DNA of 64,000 bases from Acidobacteriota bacterium (GTDB lineage: Bacteria; Acidobacteriota; UBA6911; RPQK01; JADFOI01), in contig OY760074.1 of assembly GCA_963663035.1 (NCBI GenBank), positions 2,784,001-2,848,000 on the forward strand. Reading direction: 5' to 3'. The position numbers were made by a program, and so were the translations under genes. Positions 27,316-47,013 of the stretch are shown here, one piece after another. Under the pieces are notes generated by a model. It was not told the DNA's origin and ran no database searches. It worked only from the letters and a program-made list of their open reading frames with translations. Every line of letters begins with the position of its first letter. The first letter of the stretch is position 1.

Positions 27316-27343
27316 AGGTAACATAAAGGACATTATGTTACCT
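27316..27343 (+). other. 28-bp symmetric dif/lox-like site A
   Basis: AGGTAACATAA-AGGACA-TTATGTTACCT: perfect 11-bp inverted arms, 6-bp core. Confidence 0.7.
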
Positions 27344-27692
27344 CAACTACGGAACGCAGGATCTGGTCCCGAAATCCCATCGTTTGATCAGGCTCAATGC
27401 GGTGCATCTGGCCTTTTTGCGCAAGGCCCGCTTCAAGCGGATGCACCGCCAGGGTGACCGGCTCGGTTTCACCCAAAGCGGCCGGCTGCGGCCTCCCAGG
27501 CCTTCGGCATCGTCCGCGCCAGATACCTCCGAAATGGTACCCACCCAACCTGGAGGCCGTATCACCTTTAGTTCGACCCCTCCGGACCCAGTATCTTCTT
27601 GTCCAGGGGTGTTTGCCGAACGTTCTGAGGCCGGATCGGAGGGCTAGGCTCCGCCCTACTCCCGGAGGGGCGATAGCTTTCGTTAACGGTGA

Positions 27693-28163
27693 TTACGGTT
27701 TGCAGTCCTGGTAGTCCGAGGTCATACACGCCCGTGCCAGTTCAGTCGCGCGGCTGATCTCGGCGCGGGTCATGTCACGGTCAAGATTGTCCCGCAACTC
27801 TCTGGCGGCTTCGTGGCCGTTTGCGCCAGCGATGTTGGACCACATGTGCGCGAGCACGGAGTCCTTGAGGACACCCCGCCCGTTGGCGTACATGACCCCG
27901 AGGTTAAGCTGTGCATCGGCAAACCCCTGATCGGCGGACAGACAGTACCAGCGCACGGCTTCGGCAGCGTCCTCCGGGACACCCTGCCCATTGGCGTACA
28001 TGAGCCCGCGGTTGTACTGCGCCTCGGCGTCACCCTGGTCGGCAGCTTGCCGGACCGTGTCGAGATCGTCTTGTGCCGAGAGCACCATGATGGCGAGACC
28101 ACCCGCCACGATCACGGCAGCAGTTATGCGGATCAGCCTTGGTATTTTATTTATCGGCTTCAA
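27693..28163 (-). CDS. Secreted Sel1-like repeat protein, 2 repeats (paralog of 7024..8250)
   Basis: Same signal peptide, caps and upstream DNA as the 9-repeat copy. Confidence 0.9.
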   Translation of the reverse strand: MKPINKIPRLIRITAAVIVAGGLAIMVLSAQDDLDTVRQAADQGDAEAQYNRGLMYANGQGVPEDAAEAVRWYCLSADQGFADAQLNLGVMYANGRGVLKDSVLAHMWSNIAGANGHEAARELRDNLDRDMTRAEISRATELARACMTSDYQDCKP

Positions 28164-28218
28164 ATGCGGGTTACTCTCCTCTCTCCAGCCCCTAGCATAT
28201 CCGAGTCAGGATGCTAGG

Positions 28219-29031
28219 GGCATTGTCAGAGAAAAACAGGCTTGATTCGGCGGGATGCGTCTTGTAAGTGTCTTTGGATGAAGAGCCCATTTCGCTATTT
28301 CAAGACTTCGCCCGAAATCATCCGCCTTGCGGTGATGATGTATGTGCGCTTCCCACTGTAGCTACGCAATGTTGAGGACCTTCTCCACGAGCGCGGGATC
28401 GAGGTGAGCCACGAGACGATCCGGTTCTGGTGGAACAGTTTTGGCCCGATCTTTGCCGCCGAGCTCCGCAAGAAGCGGAAGGGTCGAATGCGTGCGTTGT
28501 CGGGTTGTCGGTGGCACCTCGATGAGGTGTTCGTGAAAATCCATGGCGAACGCCATTACCTGTGGCGCGCCGTGGACCAGGAAGGCGAGGTGCTGGAGGC
28601 CTTTGTCTCGAAGAAGAGAGACCGCAAGGCCGCCTTGAAATTCCTCAGGAAACTGATGAAGCGCTACCCTAGACCGGATGCGATCATCGCGGATAGGCTA
28701 AGGTCTTACCGCGCGGCATTGCGTGAACTGGGCGGAAGCGGTCGGTGTCAAGCTGGCCGCTGGCGGAACAATCGTGCGGAGAATTCCCACCTGCCGTTCC
28801 GGCGACGAGAACACGCAATGCTCCGTTTCAGGCGGATGCGAAGCCTCCAGAAATTTGCCACCGTCCATTCTTCCGTCTACAACCACTTCAACCTGCGACG
28901 ACTCCTCTGTTCACGGGACAATTTCAAGCTCAACCGCGCCGCTGCACTTGCCCAGTGGCGTCAACTCGGGGCGGCCTAATTCCCTATCGCCAGTGGAGAA
29001 CTCAGACCTGCGGATTTCCTCTGACAGTGCC
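28219..29031 (+). mobile_element. IS6-family element (type A) copy 1; transposase has TAG at 28359
   Basis: IRs GGCATTGTCAGAG / CTCTGACAGTGCC; WHLDEVFVKI...YLWRAVDQEG...NNRAENSH. Confidence 0.93.
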
Positions 29032-29091
29032 GTGGGGTAAGCTCATAATAGCCCGGGTTGCCTCAAACATAGGCTTCTAGGAGAACGTAAT

Positions 29092-29462
29092 ATGGGCATG
29101 GGCCGGAAAAGGCGGCAACAGGAATCGCTGTGGATAGCGACCTAGGAGTTGCCGCGAACCAAGGACCACGTCTCCTACTACTGGGTGAACCGGATTCTCG
29201 GAGAACATCAGTTTGATGCGTTTGCCAAGTCGCTGTGCGAGAAATTCTACGCGGTGCGGGGCGGGCCGCGAGTGCCGCCGGGAGTGTACTTCAGGATGCT
29301 ATTGGTCGACTACTGCGAGGCCCTGGCCTCGGAACGTGGGATCGCCTGGCGTTGTACCGACTCCTTAAGACTGCAGAACTTTCTGGGTGTCGGACTAGAC
29401 GGCGATGTTCTGGACCATTCGACGCTATCGCGGATCCGGCATCCGATTGACGTGGAGACGCA
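29092..29462 (+). pseudogene. Degenerate DUF772-type (IS1182/IS5-like) transposase N-terminus
   Basis: PPGVYFRMLL...SERGIAWRCTDSL...DHSTLSRIR; TAG at 29143. Confidence 0.75.
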
Positions 29463-29497
29463 TGCACCTGGTCAATCCATTGATTCGGCTGACCAAA

Positions 29498-32400
29498 ATG
29501 TTTAGCTCACTTGTCTGCTACAGGTCCGTTCCTGGACTGGAAGAGAGTCCGGTCCTTGGATTCCCACGTCTCGTCGCCTCCACCATCATGCTGTCGGCGC
29601 TCCTGTCCGGCGTCGCCATGCACCAAGTCCACGCCCAGAACAACAACTCGATCTGCGAGCAGGAGACCCCCCCCGAGATCTGCTCCTGGGGCGGGGAAGT
29701 GCAAGTGTCAACGTCCACGTTGACGATCAGGGAGGGAGAAACCATCAGCTACGCCATAAGGCTCAGTGAGCAGCCGTCCGCCGACGGCTGGTGGGTACGG
29801 ATCCATGTCAACGGAGTGGTGTACATCAACGGCAACCACGGCAACAGCGAGGGAATAGGCATTCGTTGGGTGCCGTCCGTCGGCTGGCAGTTCGATCGGG
29901 AGGAGGGTAAGGAAGATTCGGATCCAACGCAATGGCGAAACGTTCATATAAAAGCATTCCAAGACAACGATGATGATAAGGATGAGTTTGTGACCATCAC
30001 CCACGAGGTGTCGGACGAGAACTTCCAATGCCCACCATCCCTGCACGGTGTGGCCCCTGTGAAGGTGCAAGTCACGGACGACGAGTCGGCGTCGACGGAG
30101 GTGGCGTTGTCGGTGAATCCGATGACGGTGAGCGAAGGGGCGGGCGGAACGACGGTGACGGTGAGGGCGGCGCTGAACGGAGCGCCGCGGTTGGGATCGA
30201 CGCCGGTGAAGGTGGCGGTGGGCAGGACGAGAGACAGCGCGACGGAGGGGACGGACTACGAGACGGTCGATGACCTGACGGTAACGATTCCCGAGGGATT
30301 GACGAGTGCGACGGAGAGGTTCACGTTGACGCCGACCGACGACGTCGTCGTCGAGAGCGACAAGACGGTGACCGTGAGCGGGACGACCACCGCCTCGGGC
30401 ATCACCACTGTCAACCCGGCCACCCTCACCATCACCGACGACGACGTTCCGCCGGACACCATCGAGCTGAAGGTGAGTCCCGCCAGCGTCGCCGAGACCG
30501 CCGGGGAGACAGACATCATGGTGACGGCAGCTTTCCCGCAGGGGAGCACCACCCTGTCAACGCCCACGGGAACGTTACTCTGGCGGCAGCGACTGGTGAA
30601 CGTTACTCTGGCGGCAGCGACTGCCCAGACCGCCGATTTCACTCCGGTGCAGCCCTTCAACGTCACCATCCCCGCCAGCGCCCGTAGCGGGACGGCAACC
30701 TTTCAGTTCACGCCCAACGACGACACCTACATGGAAGGTTCCGAGACGGTGACCGTGAGCGGGACCACCACCGCCTCGGGCATCACCACTATCAACCCGG
30801 CCACCCTCACCATCATCGACGACGACACACCGAACAATCCGCCGACGGGGCAGCCGAGGATTACCGGTACGCCGCAGGTGGGCCAGACCCTGACGGCGGT
30901 GACGACCGACATTCAAGACGCCGACGGCCTGGGCGACTTCGCCTATCAGTGGAAGGCCGACGAAACGAATATCGCCGAGGCAATGGATTCAAGCTACAGG
31001 CTGACCAACAATGAGGGCGGTAAGCGGATCACGGTCACGGTGAGCTTCACCGACGGCATCGGCACCGAAGAAACCGTGACCAGCCAGCCGACCGCCGCGG
31101 TCAGGGACGCGGTTACCCCGCGCTCACCTCCACCCCCGCCGGTCCTGACGGTGGCGTTCGACCTGGCAAGCTACAGCACGACGGAAGGTGGCGATCCGGT
31201 GACGCTGAGGGTGGCGCTGAACCGGACCTCCAACCAGGACCTCACGATTCCAATTACGGTGATGCCGCAAGGCGCGACGGAAGCGGATGATTACACGGTT
31301 TCCGGTCTCACCGATGGAGCGTTGAGTTTTGCTCCCGAAGACCTCTCCAAGACGTTCATGATCGTGGCCAACGAGGACACCGACAGCGACAATGAGACGA
31401 TAGAGTTGGGCTTCGGGACGCTGCCAGAGGGGGTCAGCAAAGGTGAGATGGCCACGGCCACCCTCACCATCATCGACAACGAAACACCGAACAATCCGCC
31501 GACGGGGCAGCCGAGGATTACCGGTACGGCGCGGGTGGGCCAAACCCTGACGGCGGTGACGACCGACATTCAAGACGCCGACGGCCTGGGCGACTTCGCC
31601 TATCAGTGGAAGGCCGACGAAACGAATATCGCCGAGGCAATGGATTCAAGCTACAGGCTGACCAACAATGAGGGCGGTAAGCGGATCACGGTCACGGTGA
31701 GCTTCACCGACAGCATCGGCACCGAAGAAACCGTGACCAGCCAGCCGACCGCCGCGGTCAGGGACGCGGTTACCCCGCCCCCACCTCCACCCCCGCCGGT
31801 CCTGACGGTGGCGTTCGACCTGGCAAGCTACAGCACGACGGAAGGTGGCGATCCGGTGACGCTGAGGGTGGCGCTGAACCGGACCTCCAACCAGGACCTA
31901 ACGATTCCAATCACGGTGATGCCGCAAGGCGCGACGGAAGCGGATGATTACACGGTTTCCGGTCTCACCGATGGAGCGTTGAGTTTTGCTCCCGAAGACC
32001 TCTCCAAGACGTTCATGATCGTGGCCAACGAGGACACCGACAGCGACAATGAGACGATAGAGTTGGGCTTCGGGACGCTGCCAGAGGGGGTCAGCAAAGG
32101 TGAGATGGCCACGGCCACCCTCACCATCGTAGACGCTGGCCCGCCGGAGCTGACGGTAAGCTTTGCGCGGGCCGAGTACACAATTGCCGAAGGAGGCGAG
32201 CCGTCCAGCATCAATGTGAACATCTCCCCGGCTGCGGACCGCCGGGTGGAAGTGCCGCTAGTAGTGACGACGCAAGGAGGTGCGACGAGCCAGGACTACG
32301 ACGGGGTGCCGGCGTCGATCGTCTTCGAGGTCGGCGCGACCGTGGTCACTTTCCAGATGACCGCGTTGGCGGATCAGGAGGATGATCCGGGCAAGAGTAT

Positions 32401-34114
32401 TGTCCTTGGATTCGGGGATCTGCCGGAGGCGGTCAGTGAAGGCGACCCCTCAGAGACCACGGTGAAGTTCACCCAGCAACGCAGCGCGGAGCAGTTTTCG
32501 GCATCGATGAAGATCCTGCTGGCGGTAACTGCCCGTTCGGTGGCAGATAGCGCGCAGACGGCGATCCAGTCTCGATTCCAGCGCAAGCGCCAGTTGATGC
32601 GGAACAGGCAGTCCGCACGCGGTCCGAACACGGGGGGAAGCCTGTCTGCCGGCCTGGCCAGCAGCAACGGCTCGGGTCTCAGCAGGGCCGGTGCTTTAAA
32701 TCACATGCCAGAGGTCGATAGATTCGGCTTTGCATCCCCCAGGCTGGCCGAGGGCGCTGGTCCGTCGATGGGCTCGACCCGCTCAGGCAGCTTGCATAAC
32801 TCCTTGGCTCCCGACTATGGCATCGCGCCCACCCAAGCGGCCTACGGGTACGATACGCTCCAAAGGACCTCCACGGCTGACCCATCGCTGGGGGCTCTCC
32901 AGTTCTCCGGGATAAGGGCTCGACAACCGGTCCTTTCCCAGGCTTCCTTCAACCTCCAAATGGGAGAAAGCCCCAGGGGCAACGACGGGAGTGGGAGTGT
33001 AGCTCTGTGGGTTCAGGGCGACCTGCAAGACTTCAACGGGAATATCACCCGGGGTGGGATGGACTATCGCGGTGTCATGGGGGCCGTCCACGTTGGACTG
33101 GACCTCTACAACAGCGAACAGATGCTCGTCGGCTTCTCCTTCATGCGAAGCTTTGCTCGTATCAATTACAACGCCGATGGGGTCCATGGGATGTTTAGGA
33201 ATGGTATGAACACGGCTCATCCGTATCTGTACTGGCAGCCCAACGAGCGCTTCAGTGCGTGGGTCATTGGAGGCTTAGGAAGAGGTGAAGTTGATGTCAA
33301 TGAGCCGGGCCGAGCTCACGACTTAACTTCCGACTTTCGTATGTTCTCGGGCGGGATGCGCTCGGTACCGGCCAAGCGGGGCAACACGGAGGTGGGCGTT
33401 GTTGTAGATTCTTTCACTGCACGCCTCGGAACCAACGCTTCGAAAGACATCGAAAGGGTAAGTGGCCAAGTCAGCCGGACAAGGATGATGCTGGAAATTG
33501 TCCACGACAAGCCTCTGGAAGCGGGGAGATCGCTAAGCATTAAGGCAGAATTTGGGCACCGCCACGACGCGGGCGACGCGGATAGGGGTTCTGGGGCGGA
33601 AGCCGGCTTCCGTCTCGGCTATCTGGATGCGGCCGGCGGTCTGGACATTGCGTGGCACGGCCGGATGCTGCTGGTGCGTGAAAGTGACTACCGCGACTTC
33701 GGAGTAGGAATACAGGTTAGCTGGGACTCGGGGGAAAAACATCGGGGTCTGCAACTGTCGATGATGTCTTCGCGCGGACACGATGGGGGAGGCAGGACGA
33801 CGCTGTGGAACAACTCGGCCCTGGTCACCCGTCCCATGGGCTCGGGCTACATGCCCAACGCCTCCCAGACCAGCACGAGCAGCGAGGTGGCCTACGGAAT
33901 GGACATCTTCGGCGGATGGGGTTTGCTGACGCCCTACAGCCGCCTGCAACTTGCCGGCTATGGGAGCGACCTGCGCGTGGGCACCGAATTGAGCCTGCTT
34001 TCTCGCGGGCTGCCAGCGCAGCCCGCGAAGTTCCAATTGGAAGGGATCAGGCGGGAAACCCCCAACCGCATGATCGATCTAGGCATTATGTTAGGAATCT
34101 CGATTCCTTTCTGA
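29498..34114 (+). CDS. Large surface adhesin: Calx-beta/Ig-like repeats plus C-terminal autotransporter-like beta-barrel
   Basis: Signal-like segment ...AMHQVHAQ; repeated EG...V.V.L...DY...ATLTI.DD units; barrel region (LWVQGD...GLGRGEV) ending in terminal F. Start uncertain. Confidence 0.82.
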   Translation: MFSSLVCYRSVPGLEESPVLGFPRLVASTIMLSALLSGVAMHQVHAQNNNSICEQETPPEICSWGGEVQVSTSTLTIREGETISYAIRLSEQPSADGWWVRIHVNGVVYINGNHGNSEGIGIRWVPSVGWQFDREEGKEDSDPTQWRNVHIKAFQDNDDDKDEFVTITHEVSDENFQCPPSLHGVAPVKVQVTDDESASTEVALSVNPMTVSEGAGGTTVTVRAALNGAPRLGSTPVKVAVGRTRDSATEGTDYETVDDLTVTIPEGLTSATERFTLTPTDDVVVESDKTVTVSGTTTASGITTVNPATLTITDDDVPPDTIELKVSPASVAETAGETDIMVTAAFPQGSTTLSTPTGTLLWRQRLVNVTLAAATAQTADFTPVQPFNVTIPASARSGTATFQFTPNDDTYMEGSETVTVSGTTTASGITTINPATLTIIDDDTPNNPPTGQPRITGTPQVGQTLTAVTTDIQDADGLGDFAYQWKADETNIAEAMDSSYRLTNNEGGKRITVTVSFTDGIGTEETVTSQPTAAVRDAVTPRSPPPPPVLTVAFDLASYSTTEGGDPVTLRVALNRTSNQDLTIPITVMPQGATEADDYTVSGLTDGALSFAPEDLSKTFMIVANEDTDSDNETIELGFGTLPEGVSKGEMATATLTIIDNETPNNPPTGQPRITGTARVGQTLTAVTTDIQDADGLGDFAYQWKADETNIAEAMDSSYRLTNNEGGKRITVTVSFTDSIGTEETVTSQPTAAVRDAVTPPPPPPPPVLTVAFDLASYSTTEGGDPVTLRVALNRTSNQDLTIPITVMPQGATEADDYTVSGLTDGALSFAPEDLSKTFMIVANEDTDSDNETIELGFGTLPEGVSKGEMATATLTIVDAGPPELTVSFARAEYTIAEGGEPSSINVNISPAADRRVEVPLVVTTQGGATSQDYDGVPASIVFEVGATVVTFQMTALADQEDDPGKSIVLGFGDLPEAVSEGDPSETTVKFTQQRSAEQFSASMKILLAVTARSVADSAQTAIQSRFQRKRQLMRNRQSARGPNTGGSLSAGLASSNGSGLSRAGALNHMPEVDRFGFASPRLAEGAGPSMGSTRSGSLHNSLAPDYGIAPTQAAYGYDTLQRTSTADPSLGALQFSGIRARQPVLSQASFNLQMGESPRGNDGSGSVALWVQGDLQDFNGNITRGGMDYRGVMGAVHVGLDLYNSEQMLVGFSFMRSFARINYNADGVHGMFRNGMNTAHPYLYWQPNERFSAWVIGGLGRGEVDVNEPGRAHDLTSDFRMFSGGMRSVPAKRGNTEVGVVVDSFTARLGTNASKDIERVSGQVSRTRMMLEIVHDKPLEAGRSLSIKAEFGHRHDAGDADRGSGAEAGFRLGYLDAAGGLDIAWHGRMLLVRESDYRDFGVGIQVSWDSGEKHRGLQLSMMSSRGHDGGGRTTLWNNSALVTRPMGSGYMPNASQTSTSSEVAYGMDIFGGWGLLTPYSRLQLAGYGSDLRVGTELSLLSRGLPAQPAKFQLEGIRRETPNRMIDLGIMLGISIPF
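30800..32128 (+). repeat. 657-bp (219-aa) in-frame tandem duplication
   Basis: GCCACCCTCACCATC recurs at 30800, 31457 and 32114; the two units are near-identical. Confidence 0.93.
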
Positions 34115-34559
34115 GGACGTTAGGAAGAAAAACATCGGAACGTCGTTTTCGTTCCGCTAGGCTACACATAACGAGCCGAAAAACCGGTTGTGTTGCTGTA
34201 CGTCTTCAGCGAAAGTGGGACATTTTGAGTCCTCGGCTAAGAGACAGTGGGAACCGATGGGGTGGCGGGGACGCAGGCTTCCCCTGGAAAGACACCATCC
34301 AAAAGTAGAACTTTCTGGCACGATGGAACAGGAGGTTCTCGATGAAGCTGTTCGACTCTCTGGGATGAATGCCACGCTAAGGCCTCATATTTGGCCGTGG
34401 CTGCATCGCTAAGGTATGGGAAAGGGCCGTTTCGGATGGCTCTTCGCGTATGACTTTTCCGTTTCGTGAGGTGACCCCATATAGCGCGTATCAACGACAG
34501 CGAACTGCCGATACGGGCGCTGGTGTCACAGATTATTTCCTAACCCTCTCGACCTTCAT

Positions 34560-35150
34560 TTAGCGGCTCCGGGCCTTCCGTGATTTCCTTACACTCGCCT
34601 TTCCCGATCTCCCAGAATTGACGTAACCTTTCTGAACGGTCCGAGCTGAAGCTCGCCTCTGCGAGTGAACAGAGCTAAGTGCCGAAACTTGGAATTGTAA
34701 ACATTCACCACGTGCCAGGGAATTCTTCTCTATGACTCTCAGATTTTCATTAAGATTCCACAGTTCTATACCTCTTGCATGGCCCCCTTTGTTTTCGACT
34801 ATCCACAACCCCCAATTCCCCTGGAAAGCGATTCTAAGAGCGAGCCGGGGTATGGAATCCTGGTAGTCTGTTGTTACTTGCTCCTGTAACAATTCAGTCT
34901 GCTTGCCGAGCTGTTTCCGTGTAAGCGCTAGTTCCTCGCGCTGAAGGCGGAGCTCTTTGGACTGTAGGAGATACCCGTATACCAACCAACCGAAAGCCAG
35001 GGGTGTGAAAACGCCTGCGAAAAAGTCTCCCAACTCGTTGAGGTTGCCTGCCCTTAAGAGCTCCCAAGCATCGTTAACACGAAGAAAGAGAATGGTGGCG
35101 ATGTAAAGAATGCTCAGGGCACCCATCACGAAAATGCCAGCATGCTTCAT
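34560..35150 (-). CDS. Two-TM plus coiled-coil hypothetical protein
   Basis: NELGDFFAGVFTPLAF.WL...LQ.KEL.LQREEL motif, commonly seen in mobile or defence regions; C-terminus may be truncated. Confidence 0.6.
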   Translation of the reverse strand: MKHAGIFVMGALSILYIATILFLRVNDAWELLRAGNLNELGDFFAGVFTPLAFGWLVYGYLLQSKELRLQREELALTRKQLGKQTELLQEQVTTDYQDSIPRLALRIAFQGNWGLWIVENKGGHARGIELWNLNENLRVIEKNSLARGECLQFQVSALSSVHSQRRASARTVQKGYVNSGRSGKASVRKSRKARSR

Positions 35151-35693
35151 TCACTTCCCCTTCTCGACCCATCCGCGTATCACAGGAGACCTTCCGGCCA
35201 CTCGCACATCTTGATAGCGGTCCGCCGCGGATTCAAATCGATGATACCCTCTGCAAGAAACTGTCGCTGCCGTCTCTCACTCCAATCCGCGAGCTTCTGG
35301 TTCGAGAGCCAGGTCTGACCGGGCAAAAATCACCTTAGGTTCAGCCCCACGGCCCGCCAACTTGGCCACCGCCAAACCCCACATGGGTGATGTGCCCAAG
35401 GCCGCCTAACGACCCTAGAGCTCCCGGGGCCCAAGGAAGTCATGCCACTCACGGCTTTCCCCCTGAAAACCCTCTAGAAAGGTTTGCACAAAGCTACCTG
35501 GAGGCCGTGGATTTCAAGTAGAAGGTGGGGAGTACTCCAAATTTCCGGTCGATCTCAGACAGAGTCTCCTCGTCGTTGACTAGCTCAACTTTGCCCATTC
35601 TCCCATGCCCGCCAGACAAACCCCACACAGAAAAGCGTTGTTGCATGGATCGGGGCGGAAACGGGACCGGTCATCAGATGGCCTCCCAGTGGC

Positions 35694-35721
35694 GAGTAAC
35701 ATAAAGGACGTTATGTTACTC
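35694..35721 (+). other. 28-bp symmetric dif/lox-like site B
   Basis: GAGTAACATAA-AGGACG-TTATGTTACTC, perfect inverted arms. Confidence 0.7.
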
Positions 35722-35794
35722 CATAAGGGGAGGCAAGTGCATGAACATGGTTGCTTCCGAGCGCAGCAGAAGCGCACGACCAGTGCCCGACCGG

Positions 35795-35914
35795 GGCATT
35801 GTCAAGTTAACGCATCACAAGCTGAGATAGCCCCACGATATCGTTCGTAAAACCACGTCTGAGTAGTCGATATGGTGGCTTGGTCCATCGTCAACCAGTT
35901 AACGTGACAATGCC
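35795..35914. mobile_element. 120-bp MITE with IS6-like terminal inverted repeats
   Basis: GGCATTGTCAAGTTAAC ... GTTAACGTGACAATGCC (16/17 match); no ORF. Confidence 0.8.
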
Positions 35915-35988
35915 CTCCTGGACAACACTGGTCGGTCCAAGGCCAGTCACAATTGGACTGAGCCGGTTTAATGTGGTAACAATAACTC

Positions 35989-36258
35989 TTGAAGATCGAG
36001 TTCAGCACAGCGAAGCGCAATGCCACTCTTGAGTCCCGAGGGCTGGATATGGCCCGTGCCGGCGACGTGTTCGTCGACGACACGCTCACCGTGGAAGACG
36101 ACCGGCGAGACTATGGGGAGGACCGTTTCATCACGGTCGGCTTTCTTGACGGGACGATGGTGGTTCTGGTCTGGACACCCCGCGACGAGGCGTATCGGAT
36201 CATTAGCATGAGGAAAGCCAATGAACGCGAAAGAGCACTCTACACCCCGAGATTTTGA
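35989..36258 (+). CDS. brnT: BrnT-family toxin
   Basis: K...TL..RGLD...DDRRDYGEDRFITVG...VWTPR...RIISMRKANERE. Confidence 0.9.
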   Translation: MKIEFSTAKRNATLESRGLDMARAGDVFVDDTLTVEDDRRDYGEDRFITVGFLDGTMVVLVWTPRDEAYRIISMRKANERERALYTPRF

Positions 36259-36478: not shown

Positions 36479-36489
36479 CCTCCTAACGG

Positions 36490-37228: not shown

Positions 37229-37244
37229 GCTTCCGGGGCCTATA

Positions 37245-37694: not shown

Positions 37695-37715
37695 CCCTCC
37701 GGGATCGATTCGTTG

Positions 37716-37960: not shown

Positions 37961-37988
37961 GAGTGTGATAACGTCCTTCATCACACTC
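37961..37988 (-). other. 28-bp near-symmetric dif/lox-like site D (core inverted)
   Basis: GAGTGTGATAA-CGTCCT-TCATCACACTC; the core reads AGGACG on the minus strand; one arm mismatch. Confidence 0.6.
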
Positions 37989-38046
37989 TATGGTCACAGA
38001 AGATGACCTGCTCGCCCCGGCCACCGAAATCCTCGTCTCCCCGAGA

Positions 38047-38139
38047 CGCTGCACTTGCCCAGTGGCGTCAACTCGGGGAGGCCTAATCCCCTGTCCTCGA
38101 TGAAATAACTCAGACCTGCAACTTTACTCTGACAGTGCC
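38047..38139 (+). mobile_element. IS6 type A right-end remnant
   Basis: GCACTTGCCCAGTGGCGTCAACTCGG...CTCTGACAGTGCC. Confidence 0.8.
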
Positions 38140-38313
38140 AAATATTCAGCTTTAGCCGGAATTAAATGTTTGGCCCTCCGCCGGTTGCGAGTATATACCT
38201 TATGTTTTACTTCAGCCGAATACCCGTCTTGCGAAGGATCTTCCGACGTTCCCGGCAAATCGGACTAATCGGTCTGTCCAGGTCTCCCTTGTTGGCAAAT
38301 CAGATGGACCCGT

Positions 38314-39210
38314 TCAGTTGCCGAACAGGCGTTTGACGGTAAACGTTAGCGCCCAGGAACGCGCGCCGGTGAACCTGTTGTAGTTGGAGAAGTCGGGATC
38401 CTGCTCATGAAACGGGTGAATAGCGTATCCGCCACTGGTTTCCATGCTGCCCAGCATCGAGTAAGTCAGCTTCAGTCCCAACAATGTCTTGTCGCTCAGG
38501 CTGTAGTCGACACCTGCGTGCAGGTGCCCGGCCAAGACCGTGTCGGACAGGTCGGCATCCTGGCTGCCGTTGTAGAACGACAGAGGAGGATCGTAGGCTG
38601 AAGCATTGGCCGATGTGTCCTGGTAATCGGTGGAGAAGTGCACCCCGGAGACCTCGACAAACGCAGGACCCAGCCCGATGCCCAGGTATGGGGAAATTCC
38701 GCTGAACGCATCCGGAAAATCATAGTACGCATTGAGCGAAAGAGTGCGCACAAGGAGACTGTCGATCGAAGCCTGACCATTGGACACGACCGAACCGCGG
38801 TGCCTTTCCCCCAGGGGCGTCCCATCGTAATAGGTGATGCCGCGGAACATCTGGTCGAGGCTGTTCTTCCGCTGCGCGAACGACAACTCCAGGCGCGTAC
38901 GATCGAAGATACGACCAGCCGAGATCTCGAACACGGCTCCGGCGGCTGCCGGGATATCGTAACGCCAGCGGTATCCGGAGATTTCGGGGATAGGGTCCGC
39001 ATCGAAACAAGCATCCGTCGGATAGCAGGTCGACTCCCGATTCCAGCCCTCCTGATCCAGGTCGGCTGCCCAATTCGATCCGATGCCCCCGCCGAGATAC
39101 CATCCGGAGCGCTGCACCCCCCCGACCCCGCTCTGGGCCAACAGATTGGAGATGGGGCAGAGTATCAAGATTCCACCGACGGTGGATGCGATGAACGATG
39201 CAAGACGCAT
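38314..39210 (-). CDS. Outer-membrane beta-barrel protein (opacity/OmpA-N-like)
   Basis: Signal peptide; GWYLGGGIG, RLELSF, LNAYYDF, SPYLGIGLG and AGVDYSL strands. Confidence 0.8.
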   Translation of the reverse strand: MRLASFIASTVGGILILCPISNLLAQSGVGGVQRSGWYLGGGIGSNWAADLDQEGWNRESTCYPTDACFDADPIPEISGYRWRYDIPAAAGAVFEISAGRIFDRTRLELSFAQRKNSLDQMFRGITYYDGTPLGERHRGSVVSNGQASIDSLLVRTLSLNAYYDFPDAFSGISPYLGIGLGPAFVEVSGVHFSTDYQDTSANASAYDPPLSFYNGSQDADLSDTVLAGHLHAGVDYSLSDKTLLGLKLTYSMLGSMETSGGYAIHPFHEQDPDFSNYNRFTGARSWALTFTVKRLFGN

Positions 39211-39572
39211 GGAGAGTTTCTACACGGGATTTCCTTTTAGCCTTCGGGCGGTTAAAAGTATACATCCATCTGCGTCCGACCGAGCACGATTTTTCTCCGA
39301 GAGGCCCATCGGCTCATAAACACCCTTCCAGAAGTCTTCACTGGCTGGCAATGCTGTCAGCAATATTGAACGCCGCGGCATCGGCCTCCGGAAGGCACTG
39401 TCAGAGTTCCTGCTGGACGATTTCCTTGACGAGATCGAAAGTCTCTTCGTCACCGCATCCTGGTATCGATTGGACAGCGCCGCATCCGGCGAGCGTCGAA
39501 CAAATGAAAACGGCGCGGGCGACGGGTTCAAGTCTCATTCCGTGTTCAAGCCTCCTTGCCGACGCTTCCTTG

Positions 39573-40796
39573 GTGCATTCCGGACACATAGGTTACAGTT
39601 TATTCCGAAGACATAGGTAACACCTTTGCACCAAAAGGGTTATTTATAGGACCTTCTACTGTCTTTCAAAGTAACCGAGGTCGTATTCCATAAACGACAC
39701 CAGCCAAATTTTCTCTTTGACCTCTTTGATTCCAACATCTTGACCAGCAAACACCGTGCTGAAGTTGATCTTTTGACTTTTCATACAGATTCTGCCGCAG
39801 CTGGTGACGGTCACGGTGCGATCGTGCATGGGGTACTCGACGCGCCCGATTCCTCGGTAGGGACAAGATGCGGGAGTATAGACCTCGGACGGAAACTTCA
39901 TGCCCAGGGCCTCATGAGGTCTCTCGTATTCCGCCTGAAAGGCATTAAACCTCTCTTGCTGCTGAAGAAGGTTGTGGGCAGCGGGAACGACTGTGGCCTT
40001 CTTGAGGGTGAGATGAAGGCGCTCATGCCTTCCGTTCTGCTCGGGATGGCCGGGCTTGATCCTCTCGATTCGGATTCCTAGCCTAAGCCACCAGACGGCC
40101 AGTCGACTGAGTCCAAACAATCCGTTGGGTGATGCAAAAGGGACTCCGTTGTCCGTGCGGATCGCTTCCGGCAAAGACTCTTGAAAGGTTCTCTCGAATA
40201 CGGGGAAAGCACCTCTTTCCTTAACACTGTCGAGAGCCTCGATGGCGAGCAGATAACGGCTGGCGTGATCGCTCACGGTGAGAGGATAACAGTACCTGGC
40301 ATGAACTCTCCTTTGAAGTCGGCAGACCAAAGGTCATTGGGATTCTGGCTGCTGGACAATCGAGTCCCCTCTGCCTTGAACCGTCGCCGTTTTCTACATC
40401 ACCAGGCCGTTGCGATCCAGAACCGCGTGAACTGTGCTCACCGCAGGCGGATTCGGAAACCTACGAATCAGGAGCGCCCGAATCTTGGGAGCTCCCCAAT
40501 ACGGCTTCTCTCGCTTTAGCCTGACCAGGGTCCGTTCCACCTGTTCGGGCAGTTGGTTCGTAACGATGCGGCTTGCGGCTCCGATCCACCAGGGCGTAAG
40601 CGCCGGTGTTTTGATAGCGGTTCCAAATCTTGTAGCCCGTCTTTCTGGATATCCCAAACTCCTCACACAGACGGCTCATTTCGCTATAAATCTCATTCTC
40701 TCGTCCATCACACAGCTTCCATGGCATCTCTGGGCACCTCCCGAGTGTTACCCATGTGTCCGGTATAATTTGTTACCCATCTTTCGGAATGGGCAC
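39573..40796 (-). mobile_element. IS481-family element with degenerate transposase
   Basis: MPWK...FGISRKTGYKI; LWSADFKGEF; TDNGVPF; QNGRHERLH; doubled TGTTACC(C/T)ATGT terminal repeats at both ends; several frameshifts. Confidence 0.87.
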
Positions 40797-40930
40797 TTTC
40801 GGCATAGGTCAGTGGACCTATTGCGGTCCCTCCTTTTTTCCCACCTCGAGTATCTCCCGGAGGCCTTCCTCCAGTCTGCCTTCGGATTGGCGTTTGCCCA
40901 ATGCAATGGACCTTTTTACCCTCCCTAGAG

Positions 40931-41740
40931 GGTTCTGGTGCAGATAGGATTGTCGGAGCGATAAGACCAGGAGTGCGCCCTGGCGATGCGGCCTATGCTG
41001 CCATGACGTGACGCCAGATCACGGCAGGATTCGACTGCCATGGGATCGGAATTGCGAACTGGCGTTTGTGAATCTTCTGCGCCAGCTCGATGCCGATAAT
41101 GACACGTCGCGCATTGTAGAACGTCTTGAATCCCAACATCGAGCGCAATCGCCCTTTCACCCGGCGGTGGTCCTGCTCCACAACGTTGTTCAGGTATTGA
41201 CAGCAACGAATCTTCACCGGGTTCCGCCCCCGGAAGTTGAACTCCCCGTTCATTCCCATGTGCCGCAGGGCGCTATGGCTCGGCCGGTGGCCATCCAGAG
41301 GTGATGCTGTGTGGCTCCCGACGATGCTTCAGCGCCTTGCGAAAGAAGGCCTTCGCCGCTGCGATGCCACGTGCCCGACTGAGAAAGAACTCCACAGTGT
41401 TGCCCTGTCCGTCCACGGCTCGATACAGGTACATCCACTGGCCCCGCACCTTGATAAACGTTTCATCAACCCGCCAACTCCCACCCACCGGCCGTTCGAA
41501 TCGGCTCCAACGCCTTTCGCAGATTTCGGCATAGCGAACGACCCACCGCAAGATTGTGGTGTGCGAAATCGGTAAACCCCGCTCACCTAAAATCTCGACC
41601 AGGTCCCGGTAACTCAGTTTGAAGCGGAAATACCAGCGAAGGCAGAGAAGAATGATGTCGTCTATAGAGGATTCCGTTCCGTTTTACGATGCGCCATATC
41701 TCATTATCGCCAATCCCTGTTGGCTGTCTGCACCAGAACC
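40931..41740 (-). mobile_element. IS6-family element (type B), full length, frameshifted
   Basis: IRs GGTTCTGGTGCAGA / TCTGCACCAGAACC; WRVDETFIKVRG...YLYRAVD...LNNVVEQDHR. Confidence 0.9.
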
Positions 41741-42487
41741 TCCTCGCCACTCTCCTGCAACGCCTTACGGTGCGTTTCGAGACGCGCCTGGTGCTCTCGC
41801 AGCGCCGTAATCTTCTGTGCCAGATCCCGCCCCCGCCCCTTGCTGGGGCTCGCATCGGCCATGTCGGCCGCGTCCATCTCATCCATCTGCTGCAGGTACC
41901 GCTCCAGCCGTTCCTGGCTCGCCGCCAGATCGCGCCGCAGCTTGGCCACGGTGAAGTTCCGGTCCCGGCTGTTCACCGCCTTGATCCGCGTGCCATCGAC
42001 CGCGATCAACTCCCGGCCGAACAGTTCCAGGCTCCGGCACACCTTCACGAAGTCACGGAACACTTGCCGGAACGCCTCCCGGTTCTCGCGCCGGAAATCC
42101 GCAATGGTCTTGAAGTTCGGCCGCAGGCGGCGCAACAGCCAGATCGCCTCCAGGTTGCGGTGGGTTTCCGCCTCCAGCCGTCGGCTGGACCGCACCCGGT
42201 TCAGATACCCGTAGATGTACAGCTTCAGCAAGTCGGAGGGATCGTACCCCGGGCGCCCTGTCTCTTTCGGCTCTGCTCGTTCGAACCCGGCCCCAGCCAA
42301 GTCGAGACTGTCGACGAAAGCGTCGATGAACCGCACTGGGTTGTCGGGACCCACATAGTCGTCTACCGTGTCCGGCAGTAGAAGCACCTGTGCGCGATCT
42401 GTCCCCGTGATGTGTGCCATGCCCCATTCTACCTCCAGTAGGCAGGGGGGCGTCCCGGGGGACCCGGTGGGTTTTCACACAGTCTGG
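41741..42487 (-). mobile_element. IS1182-family transposase 5' half, cut by IS6
   Basis: Same N-terminus and left end as 26343-26901. Confidence 0.88.
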
Positions 42488-42527
42488 AGCGGTTACGCAA
42501 TGATCCGGCTCCAGACGTATTCACAAG

Positions 42528-42785
42528 GGTTCTTCCTATCCGGCTCAGGCGAATTGCCTGGAGCACCGTGGACATACCGCTGATCCCGACCAAAGTAAAC
42601 ACGGCCCAGGACAGAAAGGCTTCGGTCCCGCCTCCAGCGTGAACCACGATCGCCGCCGTCAAAACGATGCCGGCGACGAAGAGGATGGCTGGTTGTAGGC
42701 CGAGACCGAAGGCAAGCAGTATCGAAGGTCGGACGTCCGGTTTGTAGTGAATGCTTGTGCACAACTCCGAATCGTCAGCAGCCAT
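42528..42785 (-). pseudogene. Xanthine/uracil (NCS2) permease N-terminal fragment
   Basis: Y.PD.RP...GLGLQ...ISG.STVLQA.R..RIG; truncated next to IS1182. Confidence 0.65.
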
Positions 42786-42965
42786 ACCGTCATCCTATGC
42801 CACACATGGACTCGTAGGTGCAAACGCGCTGTGAGTTTTGCCGACCCCAGCCTATGGCTGCAAGGCCCTCATTCGCGGGCCTCAGAACCAAGGCGCATTA
42901 ACAAGCCCTGGTCGGATAGTCTGGCGGCTCATTTAAGCGGATTTATGCACCCACGGCAAACCGGG

Positions 42966-44624
42966 TCAACTCTGGATCGCCTGCCGGGCAGTGAGAATGT
43001 CGTTGACGAGGCTCTGAACGTTCTGCTCGTCAATGAACGGCGAGAGAATGAAGCTCTTCAGGCCCACCATCGGCTCGCCGTAATCCGTTTCGCGATAGCA
43101 ATCTGTCATCGAGATGTGCACGCCTTCGCCACGCATGGCCCGGTCGTAGAGATATCGGAACAGTCGGCGATTATAGTCGTTGTGGCGCAGCAACTCTTCC
43201 CGGGCGTCTGGATCGGTACGCTCGCGGTCCTTAATGGTCCACGTATCGACCCCGTCGGGATAAACCCGAAACACCGTGACCGTTCCGATGCCGTCGTCGT
43301 TGAGCACCGTCGTCGAATCATGCCCTTCGAGATGCTCGCGCAGTGATTCGGCCATCTCCACAAGGTGGCCGAGGAGAACGCGGAGGCCGATCCGGCCGAA
43401 GAGATGGAGGTTAGCGTACGCTGCGAGCACGCCTGAACCGCTACGCGAAGCCTCCAGCGTAAACATCCCGGGGTGGCGCTCGCCGGACTGGAACAGATAC
43501 GGCATCTCGTTCCGGCCACGCACGAGGTATTGCAGGTCGGCTCGGTCACGGACCAGAACCAAGCTCGAGATGTATGGCGCGAAGCCGGTTTTGTGGAAGT
43601 CGACTCCGATGGAGTCGGCCCGGTGCAGCTTCGAGATGCGACGGCAAGCCGCCGCGAGCGCCCGCACCGTGCGTGGACGAAACCCGAGTGGATTCCGTTC
43701 GAAGTCGTAGCCGTTGAACACCGACCACGCCCATCCGATGACGGCGTCGGCGTGGACGTGCGGCGTGTAGTCGAGGTCGTAGTCGTCGACCAACCGGTCA
43801 CGCAGGTCGACGACCGCGTCGAGATCGTCTACGCCGAACGCGTCGGTTGTACCCATCGTCGCAACCAGCGCCACGATGCGCCGACCCTGGTCGATCGCCG
43901 CGCGGGCGGCCGCGTCGAGCCGGTCGATGCGGATGTCGTTTTGCAGGTGCGTCGGCACTTCAACAACGTTCTTCTCGCCGAGGCCGAGCCAGCCGGCGAC
44001 ATTCAGGCGGCAGTAGTGGCTCTGCGCCGACGCCAGGATCACGCCGTCCGCACGGATGCCGTTGCCCATCGCGTCGGGAAACGCCTTCTCGATGCCGAGC
44101 TTAATGCCGTAGAGCATCGTGCCAGTCCCGCCGAACGTAAAGACGCCGTCCGACTGCTCTGCGTCATAGCCGATGAGCCGGGCCACCATCGCGGCAACCG
44201 ACGCTTCGGTCAGCGCAAGGCCGTACGATGTATCATCGGAGACGAGGTTCGGGTTGTAGATGGCGGACAGCAGCGAGCCGATGATGCTCGGGATCGATGA
44301 CGGCGGGATAACGTTGATCTGCGTCCGCGGATGCCCCCAGATCGGTAGACCTTCGAGCTTGTCGACCAGCAGGCTCGTCACCTCCTCCACGCTGCGTCCC
44401 TCCTCAGCCAACTCCGTCTGCTCGGTGGACGTGTAATCGAGCTCACGAGGTCGGCCGAGCAGTGGCACCTCGGACTTCATGGCGTCGGCCTGATCAAGTG
44501 CCCGCATGATCGAGAAGACAAAGTACGCGTCGTGCATCCGGTCGGAAACCGGCGCAGGGAAGGCGTTACGTATCCGGGTCAGCAGTTCGTGGTAGATGGC
44601 ATTAGTCATGCGTAGAGAGTCCAT
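42966..44624 (-). CDS. Group II PLP-dependent decarboxylase
   Basis: GVFTFGGT, AQSHY, ATMGTT, HADAVIG and ADSIGVDFHK (PLP lysine). Confidence 0.9.
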   Translation of the reverse strand: MDSLRMTNAIYHELLTRIRNAFPAPVSDRMHDAYFVFSIMRALDQADAMKSEVPLLGRPRELDYTSTEQTELAEEGRSVEEVTSLLVDKLEGLPIWGHPRTQINVIPPSSIPSIIGSLLSAIYNPNLVSDDTSYGLALTEASVAAMVARLIGYDAEQSDGVFTFGGTGTMLYGIKLGIEKAFPDAMGNGIRADGVILASAQSHYCRLNVAGWLGLGEKNVVEVPTHLQNDIRIDRLDAAARAAIDQGRRIVALVATMGTTDAFGVDDLDAVVDLRDRLVDDYDLDYTPHVHADAVIGWAWSVFNGYDFERNPLGFRPRTVRALAAACRRISKLHRADSIGVDFHKTGFAPYISSLVLVRDRADLQYLVRGRNEMPYLFQSGERHPGMFTLEASRSGSGVLAAYANLHLFGRIGLRVLLGHLVEMAESLREHLEGHDSTTVLNDDGIGTVTVFRVYPDGVDTWTIKDRERTDPDAREELLRHNDYNRRLFRYLYDRAMRGEGVHISMTDCYRETDYGEPMVGLKSFILSPFIDEQNVQSLVNDILTARQAIQS

Positions 44625-44756
44625 GCTGGAGCAATCACGTCAAAGCCCTCCGGCATCGGGCGTAATGCGCGGGCCCTGTAAGGCAACCGTCAAAAAGCCA
44701 TTGAACTTGCACTGAACGGGTATTGTCAAGTTACCGGTGAACGAACAAGTTCGATC

Positions 44757-45861
44757 AGCGTTGTTGCATGGATCGGGGCGGAGATGGAATTCGCCCTTTC
44801 TCAAGCGGTAGCGTCAGGCGATGCGTTGGAACACAGGCCGCCCGAGTGCGGTCATTGCGTTCAGAACTTTCTGGCCGACCTGGATCTCCGCGATTTGCCT
44901 GGAGAAGCTGCGAGATTTGAGCTTGGGGCCGATCACGCTCTTCCAACGACCGATCTGCGTTTCTATCCGGCTGCGTTGGTTGTACCCTGTGGCCACTTGC
45001 CAGGCCATGCGGCCGTTGCTGCGGATCTGGGCAATATGGCGATCCCGAACGGTTGGATCCCGCGCCGATTGCGGTCGGATCACTGCGTTCTTCGGCGGCG
45101 GTATAACCACATCCAGGGTCTCCCCATACCGCTGCCTCAGCATATCCCGTATAGACGCTCCATCATAGGCGCCGTCAGCCAGAAAGCCCGCGACAGGAGC
45201 ATCGAGTTGATCCAGGAGCCCGGGTAAGGCGGCGCTGTCTCCAACCTCATCGTGAGTCAGATCGGCGCAAACAATCGCACCGCTGGCCAGGTCCAGTCCG
45301 AGGTGGAGTTTGCGCCAGCGGCGGCGTATTCCCTTGATTTTATGCTTCTGGGCGAGCCATTCCCCCTCGCCGAAGATCTTGAGGCCGGTACTGTCCACCA
45401 CCAGATGGACAGCCACAGACCCGGCTTGCCTCATCGCCTGAGCGATGCTCAAGCCGTTTGCGCGACGCGACAGTGTGGAGTAATCCGGCACCCGTATATC
45501 CAGCCCCATGAGCGTGCCGATGGAGCCCATAAGTCCCTGCGTTTGCCGCAACGCAAGCCGATACGTCGTGCGCAGCGTCAGGCAGGTCTCGATCGCCAAA
45601 TCCGAGTATCTCCACTGGCCACCCCGTGACGTGCGGCGCGGCGCGCTCCACACACTTTGCGCCTCCTCACTGACCCAGATCGTCAGATCGCCCCCGCTGG
45701 CGCAGGCTCTCGTTATATTCCGCCCAGTCGATCACCCGATACTGCGCCTTATCGAACTTGTGCCGTCGGGATGCGTTGAACTTATGTGGCATCTAAGTTA
45801 TCCCCAGTGTTGAAAAACACCATGATTAGACATCCTTCGGGATGATCCATGCAACAAGGTC
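44757..45861 (-). mobile_element. IS5-family (IS903 group) element; transposase 45792..44814 with a frameshift in a G run
   Basis: IRs GCGTTGTTGCATGGATC / GATCCATGCAACAAGG; VDSTGLKIFGEGEW...WRKLHL...ADGAYD...YNQRSRIET. Confidence 0.92.
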
Positions 45862-46192
45862 GTCCAGAGATGACTTCCCGGAAATAGACGGGGGAAGTGC
45901 CGTATTCGGTTCGCTTGTTCGTAGCGGAAATTACGATGGAGGCCCTATTTTAGACAGAGGCCCTTAAAAACCCGTAGGGCGTGGGATCGTTGCGGAACCG
46001 TTCCTTTGTGCAATCCCATCTATCGATATTCTTCAGATCATCTTCCCGCGGTCGGCATGGCCCATGGGATTGTACAATTGCCTTGCCCGGCAATCGTTTC
46101 TCCGAAGAGCTGTCGCCCTTGCCCTTGGTATAATCATTGGCGATAATCGAAGATTGCAGACTGATCGGAAATCGCCACCCCGGGAAACATCA

Positions 46193-46624
46193 ATGACTTC
46201 GCCGGTGCGAAGCGTGAATGTTGATCATGTGTCTCGGCTGATGGAAGCCGTCCGTATCGGGGGAGAATTGGACATGGAGAAATTCCTTCGGGTGGCATCC
46301 GATATCGGTGGCTACACGCCTGAAACGGACCCGGGCCACAAACCGGCTGGGCGGGTGGGAGCGTCTGACGATACCGTGAGATTAGAGTGGGTTTCCCGGT
46401 GGCTAGGTTTGAAGGATCCAGAAGCCGAAGTCCTGTTCGGTCTCGGCAAACCACGGTACACGCCTTCCGGTATCACGCGTGAGCATCTGTTGGCCGTGTT
46501 GGAGGCGATCCGCGAATGTGAGCCGGTGGATCGGGATATCTGGGCCAAGCACGATCCGGATCGGGACCGGAAACTTTCCGGCCTGCCTCCAAAAACCACG
46601 AGCCCACAGGAGGTAGGACCATGA
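46193..46624 (+). CDS. Hypothetical protein
   Basis: ORF with ATGA coupling to the next gene. Confidence 0.5.
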   Translation: MTSPVRSVNVDHVSRLMEAVRIGGELDMEKFLRVASDIGGYTPETDPGHKPAGRVGASDDTVRLEWVSRWLGLKDPEAEVLFGLGKPRYTPSGITREHLLAVLEAIRECEPVDRDIWAKHDPDRDRKLSGLPPKTTSPQEVGP

Positions 46625-46863
46625 ACATGGATATGTACGTCTACCGGGTGACTGAAAAGCCGGATTCTGAAAGCGTCGGCGAGCCGGGAGAGCCATTCGA
46701 GGCGTTCAACTTGAGCGAGGCGAAGCGCATCTCAACGCGACGGCAGAAGGTAAAGGGGAGCGTGCTCGTCCTGGAGGATCTGACCGGCAGGCCACGCGTT
46801 GTCTCAACCAAAGGTACAAGCGGAAAATGGACGGATGAGGAAGAAGAGGAGACGTCCTACTAA
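46621..46863 (+). CDS. Small hypothetical protein (phage/plasmid-like)
   Basis: AGGAGG RBS; 80 aa. Confidence 0.5.
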   Translation: MNMDMYVYRVTEKPDSESVGEPGEPFEAFNLSEAKRISTRRQKVKGSVLVLEDLTGRPRVVSTKGTSGKWTDEEEEETSY

Positions 46864-46985
46864 AGGGGTGTGCAGGCCACAAGGCAGCTGTTGCGACCTG
46901 CATCTCCGAGGCGCTGGACGCCACATGATTCCGTCTCTAACTTAGAGGTTGAGACCACTCGTAGGGACAGGTCAGCCTCACAAAA

Positions 46986-47013
46986 AGGAACGATAAAGGA
47001 CGTTATGTTACTC
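46986..47013 (+). other. 28-bp asymmetric dif-like site C
   Basis: AGGAACGATAA-AGGACG-TTATGTTACTC; core and right arm identical to site B. Confidence 0.65.

Follow-up and report, generated by a model that had tools for sequence, protein, structure and literature searches.

Dif-like sites in a plasmid-like island of an Acidobacteriota genome: probable relics of a site family linked to Xer-related recombinase genes

Dif-like sites in and near the window

The stretch of DNA analysed here, referred to as the window, covers bases 2,784,001–2,848,000 (64 kb) of a single 3.59-Mb contig of an Acidobacteriota bacterium (GenBank accession number OY760074.1; source genome labelled G000), and contains four 28-bp sites with a dif-like geometry, named A to D (Table 1). 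The window was found to be plasmid-like and rich in debris of insertion sequences (ISs), with transposases or transposase fragments of the IS3, IS5, IS6 and IS1380 types. The coordinates and sequences of all four sites given in an initial annotation of this DNA were reproduced, and A to D all lie outside the open reading frames (ORFs) supported by Pfam, in agreement with the intergenic position claimed for them. When the genome and its relatives were scanned for the motif, a further site, E, was identified in the DNA preceding the window, and the same palindrome was recovered from the relatives.

In the 11-6-11 layout of the sites, two 11-base arms surround a 6-base centre. The inner arm ends ATAA and TTAT are exact in A, B and C, D has one mismatch (TCAT), and the centre is AGGACG in B, C, E and the reverse strand of D, and AGGACA in A. 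The symmetry described earlier for A and B (arms complementary at 11 of 11 positions in each), and for D with another arm (10 of 11 positions), holds. C is not palindromic, and comparison of the sequences confirmed that it joins the right arm of B to a foreign left arm of the GATAA type. E is a hybrid at positions 1–4, and combines the left arm of B with the right arm of A.

Four matches to ATAA-N6-TTAT are present in the window, against a mean of 0.11 in shuffled sequence, with none of 100 shuffles reaching four. They correspond to A, B and C and to a match at 54101, D having been missed by the pattern because of its inner-arm mismatch. The match at 54101 was rejected as a member of the site family, being the end (GATATAAAAGGGGTTATGAAAC) of an unrelated multicopy IS (54083–55477) that has its DDE_Tnp_1_4 transposase divided between two ORFs here and that occupies about 30 further places in the genome. 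Among the 58 matches in the whole 3.59-Mb genome, 31 are ends of this IS, and an AGGAC[AG] centre is found in four, namely A, B, C and E.

Hairpins of 11 bp are predicted for A, B and D (z = −5.4, −3.8 and −3.5, respectively) and none for C (z = +1.0). Searches against Rfam were negative, both at gathering score for the window and at E ≤ 10 for the DNA around A. A start codon or ribosome-binding site within the palindrome was also considered and rejected, as no conserved ORF starts from the ATG of the right arm, the frame of which stops after 3 codons in E and after about 17 in C. Elsewhere in the genome (73,431–73,458; locus L135, coordinates 1932–1959), a site with the sequence AGGAACGATAA-GTCCTC-TTATGGGACAT was seen downstream of an RNase D-like gene; it has in common with C the entire 11-base left arm and one flanking base.

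Table 1. Sites, gene stubs and IS features, with coordinates in the window unless stated otherwise
Feature	Position	Strand	Sequence or description
Site A	27316..27343	+	AGGTAACATAA-AGGACA-TTATGTTACCT; perfect palindrome outside core
Site B	35694..35721	+	GAGTAACATAA-AGGACG-TTATGTTACTC; perfect palindrome outside core
Site D	37961..37988	-	GAGTGTGATAA-CGTCCT-TCATCACACTC; AGGACG on minus strand; TCAT replaces TTAT
Site C	46986..47013	+	AGGAACGATAA-AGGACG-TTATGTTACTC; hybrid, arms unable to pair
Site E	genome 2,722,622, outside window		GAGTAACATAA-AGGACG-TTATGTTACCT; 61,378 bp upstream of window start
N-terminal recombinase stub	37990..38046	+	MVTEDDLLAPATEILVS...; starts 1 base past D; ~17 codons
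Possible gene stub after B	35741..35790	+	GGGGAGG ribosome-binding motif, ATG, ~16 codons
Solo IS5-family left end	27259..27289	+	~30 bases; 27 bases upstream of site A
Solo IS5-family left end	35634..35664	+	upstream of site B
Full-length IS5-family element	44756..45861	-	1106 bp; DDE_Tnp_1_5 and DDE_Tnp_1; terminal inverted repeat TTGTTGCATGGATC
Solo IS6/IS240-family end fragment	38041..38139	+	truncates recombinase gene beside D

A site family beside recombinase genes in other genomes

A pattern search covering 40 relatives revealed the same palindrome with the same centre and with compensatory changes in the arms, and in three relative genomes the palindrome was located 17 bases before the ATG of a gene for a 326-amino acid (aa) tyrosine recombinase. 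A profile built from eight such recombinases retrieved at least 588 loci in the genome collection. Eighty of these loci were examined, with 185 kb of upstream and 191 kb of downstream DNA scanned using a filter that required TAA-N6-TTA, a GGAC/GTCC centre and arms complementary at 7 or more of the 11 positions. A qualifying site was found upstream of the recombinase gene at 53 of the 80 loci and downstream at none of the 80, the median distance between site and protein match being about 120 bp. Palindromes with other centres occur upstream at five of the 80 loci and downstream at six. The carriers belong to the Acidobacteriota, the Planctomycetota, the Alpha-, Beta- and Gammaproteobacteria and other groups, and the recombinase genes reside on plasmids and on integrated elements.

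Conservation in the family site is highest at the centre and lower in the arms. The centre is AGGACG in 46 of the 53 sites, AGGACA in six and AGGACC in one, and is oriented towards the gene in 43 and away from it in 10, with the arms staying in place. The filter fixed positions 9–11, 14–16 and 18–20 and left positions 8, 12, 13, 17 and 21 free; among the latter, positions 8, 12 and 21 are invariant and position 17 is G in 46 of the 53 sites. The arms covary, with complementarity at positions 1–7 in 31–52 of the 53 sites and at positions 3–7 in 38–52, where two to three pair types are found at each position. Similarity of the outer arms tracks identity of the recombinases (Spearman 0.48, without correction for shared ancestry), and sites with hybrid arms are common beside recombinase genes. 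Site B shares 27 of 28 bases with the site upstream of the recombinase gene in locus L083, and the arms of D recur, with an intact TTAT, in L112 and L116, where they adjoin recombinase genes, and in L126, where the neighbour is a gene stub.

The recombinases of this family are about 320–330 aa in length and have the Phage_integrase and SAM-like domains of Pfam, and their N-termini are variable. The best NCBIfam match is XerD, at 118.9 bits against a cut-off of 329.6, and the scores on the XerC, XerA and XerS models are lower still and below the respective cut-offs. The best relatives of solved structure in the PDB are XerD (7.6e-16) and XerA, with no hit to Cre at E ≤ 0.001. The Xer scores below cut-off, together with XerD and XerA as the nearest solved relatives, indicate that these proteins form a separate clade of simple Xer-related recombinases. 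The site in locus L001, which overlaps the predicted transcription start, has a promoter-like sequence (TTGACG-16-TATGCT) 3 bases upstream and is separated by 17 bases from the ATG downstream. The start codon is located 1–10 bases past the site in several loci and 1–120 bp past it in many.

Plasmids were searched using tblastn, which returned 1086 records, a number that includes distant tyrosine recombinases; seven were at 60–80% identity, and the 30 plasmid matches listed were 52–66% identical. The palindrome was found upstream of the recombinase operon in four of six fetched plasmids (from Planctomycetota, Beta- and Gammaproteobacteria), and whole plasmid records contained exactly one match to the 14-base core motif in three of five cases and never more than one. 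Together with the position upstream of an Xer-related gene, this supports one of the alternatives offered in the initial annotation, that sites of this type serve homomeric tyrosine recombinases carried by plasmids.

The exact 14-mer was present in 19 copies in 11 of 76 genomes, compared with three control matches. G000 has the most copies (four), and none was found in six other genomes of the same genus. A recombinase gene lies no more than 1.5 kb from seven of the 15 sites outside G000, and for an eighth site the contig ends just inside the gene. Decayed site–recombinase loci recur in the same order, where the orphan sites in L113, L114 and L126 retain a short recombinase stub. At the orphan site in L123 the promoter side is retained, with a break within the right arm. 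The sites in L115, L119 and L120 are poor palindromes and may be chance matches, and a 16-mer was found in eight viral-contig loci, mostly without palindromic arms.

Neither the 12-/14-base core motif nor a description of the site was found in any paper of the library searched, the scope of which excluded supplements, and no such plasmid-borne group is named in 12 of the 29 matching passages of a classification of tyrosine recombinases (PMC8138268). The site and recombinase together look like an undescribed variant of the Xer/lox kind.

Loss of the recombinase from G000

No member of the recombinase clade is encoded by G000. The best tblastn match in the genome, at 27.7% identity, is its own XerD gene, which scored 109.9 bits on the family profile compared with 566–568 bits for true members. 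There is no intact tyrosine recombinase gene in the window, and no recombinase fragments were detected between 2.60 and 2.86 Mb of the genome at E ≤ 5 using seven queries. The earlier statement that the window is without a tyrosine recombinase gene is thus correct for intact genes, but it does not extend to the N-terminal stub that follows D. This stub can be aligned to the N-terminal end of the L116 recombinase (MVTKDALLAPSTDILVSPS...), and its reading frame enters a solo IS6-family end at ~38041. The possible gene stub after B is interrupted by a 95-base repeat, further copies of which are found at 25697 and 37703, and this ORF start may be another recombinase stub. None of A to D has an intact cognate gene beside it, and all four are orphan members of the family.

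Host Xer system

The xerC and xerD genes of the host and a candidate dif site, the location of which had been recommended as a check, were all found. XerD scored 398.6 bits (cut-off 329.6) and XerC 345 bits (cut-off 335.15), with the genes at 1.827 and 3.069 Mb, respectively. The candidate chromosomal dif, ACTTTACATAA-TATTTC-TTATCCGACGT, is located at genome position 1,265,981–1,266,008, at the maximum of the cumulative GC skew, has unlike arms, and is present once, with at most two mismatches, in five of five genomes of the same genus. Two other dif candidates, at 1,367,435 and 1,369,266, were discarded as both lie inside paralogous coding genes.

A 356-aa Xer-like recombinase is also encoded in the genome (2,632,097–2,633,216; locus L017, coordinates 6095–7217), and a site, F, with the sequence GCCTGACATAA-TAAATC-TTATGTTACCC is located 24 bases upstream of its ATG. 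Three genomes of the genus, G000 among them, have retained the 356-aa gene and site F, and neither was detected in the remaining 73 genomes of the order (E ≤ 1e-40). A CATAA arm is common to the candidate dif, F, A, B and E, and F has 10 arm bases in common with A. The centres differ, being TATTTC in the candidate dif and GATTTA in F compared with AGGACG or AGGACA in A to E.

Insertion sequences around the sites

The upstream flanks of A, B and E have about 60 bases in common, which start with a 22-mer present in nine copies in the genome. Five of the nine copies form the outer terminus of an IS5-family element, which is full-length in four cases (98.6–99.2% identical over 1106 bp), one of them that at 44756–45861, and a 217-bp end fragment at 37011–37227 in the fifth. 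The 22-mer was thereby ruled out as a part of the site, as it is the terminal inverted-repeat end of the 1106-bp element, and A, B and E each lie 27–30 bases from a solo IS end. The IS5 left end, a 30-base spacer and B make up an 86-base unit that is 97.7% identical to the corresponding unit at E.

The IS6-family fragment that truncates the recombinase gene beside D is 78–87% identical to the ends of the copies at 28219–29031, 48180–48990 and 50715–51517, and the IS6-family transposases in the window carry DDE_Tnp_IS240. A 1227-base segment at 39569–40795, which includes an rve-type transposase fragment, is skipped in the contigs of all four public sequencing runs described below and is also missing from the homologous stretch of G028, a genome from another family of the same order. 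It is therefore an insertion specific to the population from which the assembly was made.

Homology across the sites

The initial annotation proposed a division of the accessory region into cassettes by the sites, with synteny expected to break at the cores. However, E and A match at about 89% over 480 bp, from 413 bp to the left to 35 bp to the right of the site, and E is 95% identical to a copy in G028 over 2464 bp spanning the site; in both of these comparisons, the two informative ones, there is homology on both sides. B and E are alike only within the 86-base unit, which starts at the IS end and finishes with the right arm, and B and C only over 21 bases, ending exactly at the outer edge of the arm. 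Within the region, homology boundaries are mostly IS ends. As the cognate recombinase is missing, homology crosses the cores and the boundaries are mostly IS ends, the division into cassettes is not supported.

Joints at the hexamers were sought in metagenome contigs from four public runs belonging to four studies, one labelled as a sponge metagenome and three with coded organism names. The contigs covering 27100–47050 contain no joints at the four hexamers, although rare forms cannot be seen in contigs and the result is no evidence that such joints are absent; the joints that they do contain are at IS ends, and one connects 39568 directly to 40796.

The hybrid arms of E and C are what an exchange at the centre would leave, and hint at past crossovers, with which they are compatible without being proof of them. 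As hybrid arms are common beside recombinase genes in other genomes, they are read here as history and not as current activity. E and C were also considered as the two junctions of a single integrated 108-kb element. This was weakened by the finding that the flanks of E are contiguous in G028, indicating that E is not a junction made in G000.

Other genes of the island

Genes for RepA_C, ParA, ParB and HicB, a Fic-like C-terminal fragment and a 1119-aa type ISP restriction-modification enzyme are found at 14860–24151 in the window, and this plasmid backbone with its defence genes sits within a chromosome-sized contig. At 461–2957, the Lon-like protease BrxL of the BREX system is represented by two overlapping ORFs, 461–2365 (ATPase) and 2337–2957 (Lon_C), and the split reading frame suggests a frameshift. 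A Sel1-repeat gene at 7024–8250 contains seven 108-base tandem units, and a diverged, inverted fragment of it (79–82% identical) at 27693–28218 adjoins site A. Between A and B, there is an ORF of 1569 aa (29405–34114) with a Calx-beta domain and internal repeats of 381 and 657 bases.

To the right of E (genome ~2,722,650–2,724,650; locus L018, coordinates 6650–8700), two small ORFs on the minus strand and a serine-resolvase-like gene, which reads in two frames (MRIGYARVS... and then ...GDVLVVWKLGRLGR...), are followed by an ORF of 416 aa with a C-terminal stretch that, by eye, is LuxR-like, and by an ORF that is presumably ArdC-like. The first 2 kb of this block are 95% identical to the G028 contig. 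Overall, several plasmid-derived pieces lie decayed in the island, which is a graveyard and not an organised array of cassettes.

Comparison with known systems

The loxP site has a 13-8-13 layout, and Cre/loxP of phage P1, like ResD/rfsF of F, is a tyrosine recombinase system that resolves plasmid multimers. The family described here resembles Cre/loxP in having one homomeric recombinase, an inverted-repeat site with an asymmetric centre near the gene, and one site per replicon. It differs in that the layout of A to D is 11-6-11 and in that the nearest solved relatives of the recombinase are XerD and XerA, not Cre.

Each pdif site has an arm for XerC and an arm for XerD, host Xer proteins are used, and the modules are flanked by inverted sites. 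As in the pdif modules of Acinetobacter, several dif-like sites, some with hybrid arms, are scattered in accessory DNA. Unlike pdif, A, B and D have arms that are alike, the family has its own recombinase elsewhere, and there are no module boundaries at the cores; working pdif-like modules, the other alternative in the initial annotation, are thus not supported. Host XerC and XerD, on which dif and pdif sites would depend, are present in G000, and the unlike arms expected of such sites are absent from A, B and D. The pdif modules of Acinetobacter plasmids are XerC/D-dependent (PMC11705084).

Among the known systems, the single-recombinase Xer systems with a linked site and the IntA system described below come nearest to the present family in layout and in proposed mechanism. 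For XerS/difSL, genetic linkage between site and recombinase gene is stated in PMC2731167. The present family is like XerS/difSL, XerH/difH and archaeal XerA/dif in that a simple recombinase of the Xer clade is linked to a 28-bp site with an 11-6-11 layout and inner arms ATAA and TTAT. Unlike these systems, it is found on plasmids and in accessory DNA and not at the chromosome terminus. Its centre is also near-invariant across phyla, and the sites coexist in G000 with XerC, XerD and a candidate dif, which further sets the family apart from the single-recombinase Xer systems.

Passages of a study on Rhizobium etli (PMC4928290) report that IntA recombines a 23-bp palindromic site, attA, which has a divergent 7-base centre, with an orphan partner, attD, used in trans on a second plasmid, in both cointegration and excision. 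In p42a, attA is located 108 bp upstream of a gene annotated as 'site-specific integrase', which is taken to be intA. The IntA/attA-attD system (p42a, p42d) thus offers a likeness, as an analogy of layout only, in its palindromic site about 100 bp upstream of the gene and its orphan partner sites. The inner arms of the site in a Singulisphaera plasmid have the same sequences as the attA arms, TCCGATAA and TTATCGGA. IntA does not belong to the present clade, being 382 aa in length and scoring only 24.2 bits on the family profile, and attA is 23 bp and not an 11-6-11 site with AGGACG.

Interpretation of the sites

As the cognate recombinase genes are gone, and one was cut by an IS6 fragment after about 17 codons, A to E are most likely orphan relics of decayed site–recombinase loci in a plasmid-derived island ridden with ISs. 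The relics would derive from several recombinase loci with at least two arm types, GTAACATAA as in L083 and L051 and GTGTGATAA as in L116, and some may have become hybrid in earlier exchanges. By analogy with Xer/dif, XerS/difSL, Cre/loxP and IntA/attA, two monomers of the recombinase would bind the two like arms of an intact site, and strand exchange would be expected at the edges of the 6-bp centre. As the site overlaps the region of the transcription start, binding probably also represses the operon of the recombinase itself. A likely job of the system would be to resolve plasmid multimers and to fuse or separate replicons that carry the site. A to E define no mobile cassettes now; a plasmid bringing in the recombinase could still dock at them.

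Several observations weigh against the sites being simple relics. No recognisable recombinase stub remains at A, E, B or C, and the flanks of these sites are unlike canonical loci, with a solo IS end on the left and, at A and E, convergent small ORFs. Five sites in 108 kb without a recombinase would be unusual for simple relics, as the examined plasmids have at most one site per record. Host XerC and XerD and the 356-aa recombinase, which has a similar arm at its own site, are present, and activity in trans is therefore possible. The link between site and gene is not uniform, as 27 of the 80 recombinase loci have no site under the filter used, five of these having palindromes with another core, and invariance at the fixed positions is partly built in because the filter required it. 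Homology between recombinase loci starts between −4 and +5 of the first base of the site in 10 of 18 pairs, but this could equally be explained by fast decay of non-coding DNA, which would be unalignable at 70–84% coding identity.

Activity in trans is the basis of an alternative in which A to E form active pdif-like modules, with host XerC/XerD or the 356-aa recombinase recombining the sites and moving or shuffling the DNA between them. The dif-like geometry, the bona fide XerD and XerC, the candidate dif with a CATAA arm like those of A, B and E, the 10 arm bases common to A and site F beside the 356-aa recombinase gene, and the hybrid arms of E and C would all fit this. However, XerC/D sites have unlike arms, as does the candidate dif, whereas those of A, B and D are alike, and sites of this type go with a recombinase of their own (53 of 80 loci). 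The homology of E with A and with G028 crosses the core, four of the five sites have the same orientation and do not form the inverted pairs of the pdif layout, and their cores are unlike those of dif (TATTTC) and F (GATTTA), making active modules improbable. Cutting at the sites by the family recombinase is itself proposed by analogy, and there is a small chance that the palindrome is purely an operator, bound by a repressor and never a crossover site, in which case the copies in the window would be decayed promoter regions. Palindromic arms suit a dimeric DNA-binding protein, and the location of the L001 site over the predicted transcription start, and of the site 1–120 bp before the start codon in many loci, would be expected of an operator. 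Against this, the adjoining protein is a tyrosine recombinase of the Xer clade, and 11-6-11 with ATAA/TTAT, which the candidate dif also has, is the geometry of Xer crossover sites. In addition, a centre more conserved than the arms would be unusual in an operator, 10 of 53 loci have a core that faces away from the gene with the arms in place, and hybrid-armed sites are common.

It is far less probable again that the palindromes act as hairpins in RNA or single-stranded DNA, whether as a terminator, a processing site or a folded substrate of the IS200/IS605 or attC kind. Although A, B and D fold into 11-bp hairpins and the arms covary, C cannot fold and yet retains the core and inner arms. There is no T-run terminator around A and no Rfam match, the window encodes no HUH transposase or integron integrase, and the family site is upstream of the gene and not after it.

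A more speculative and rather unlikely extension of the relic interpretation starts from the near-invariant AGGACG centre, which is retained in Acidobacteriota, Planctomycetota and Proteobacteria as the arms change along with the recombinase. The centre could make all carriers mutually recombinable and permit docking across phyla, in which plasmids would fuse with any replicon bearing a site and leave cargo there. The five sites would then be landing pads, the hybrid arms of E and C would be scars, and plasmids bearing the recombinase would have integrated repeatedly via the five sites and so built the island of this sponge-associated genome.

The relics in this window have led to a large family of Xer-related recombinases, with a 28-bp site beside the gene, that has at least 588 loci in many phyla and on plasmids. 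If the interpretation is correct, plasmid genes with the generic annotation 'tyrosine-type recombinase/integrase' could be read as a recombinase with a predictable site, and the family would represent a new set of tools of the Cre/lox type with natural arm variants. The common centre would provide a testable route of cointegration between unrelated plasmids, and this near-invariant centre is the feature most worth testing.

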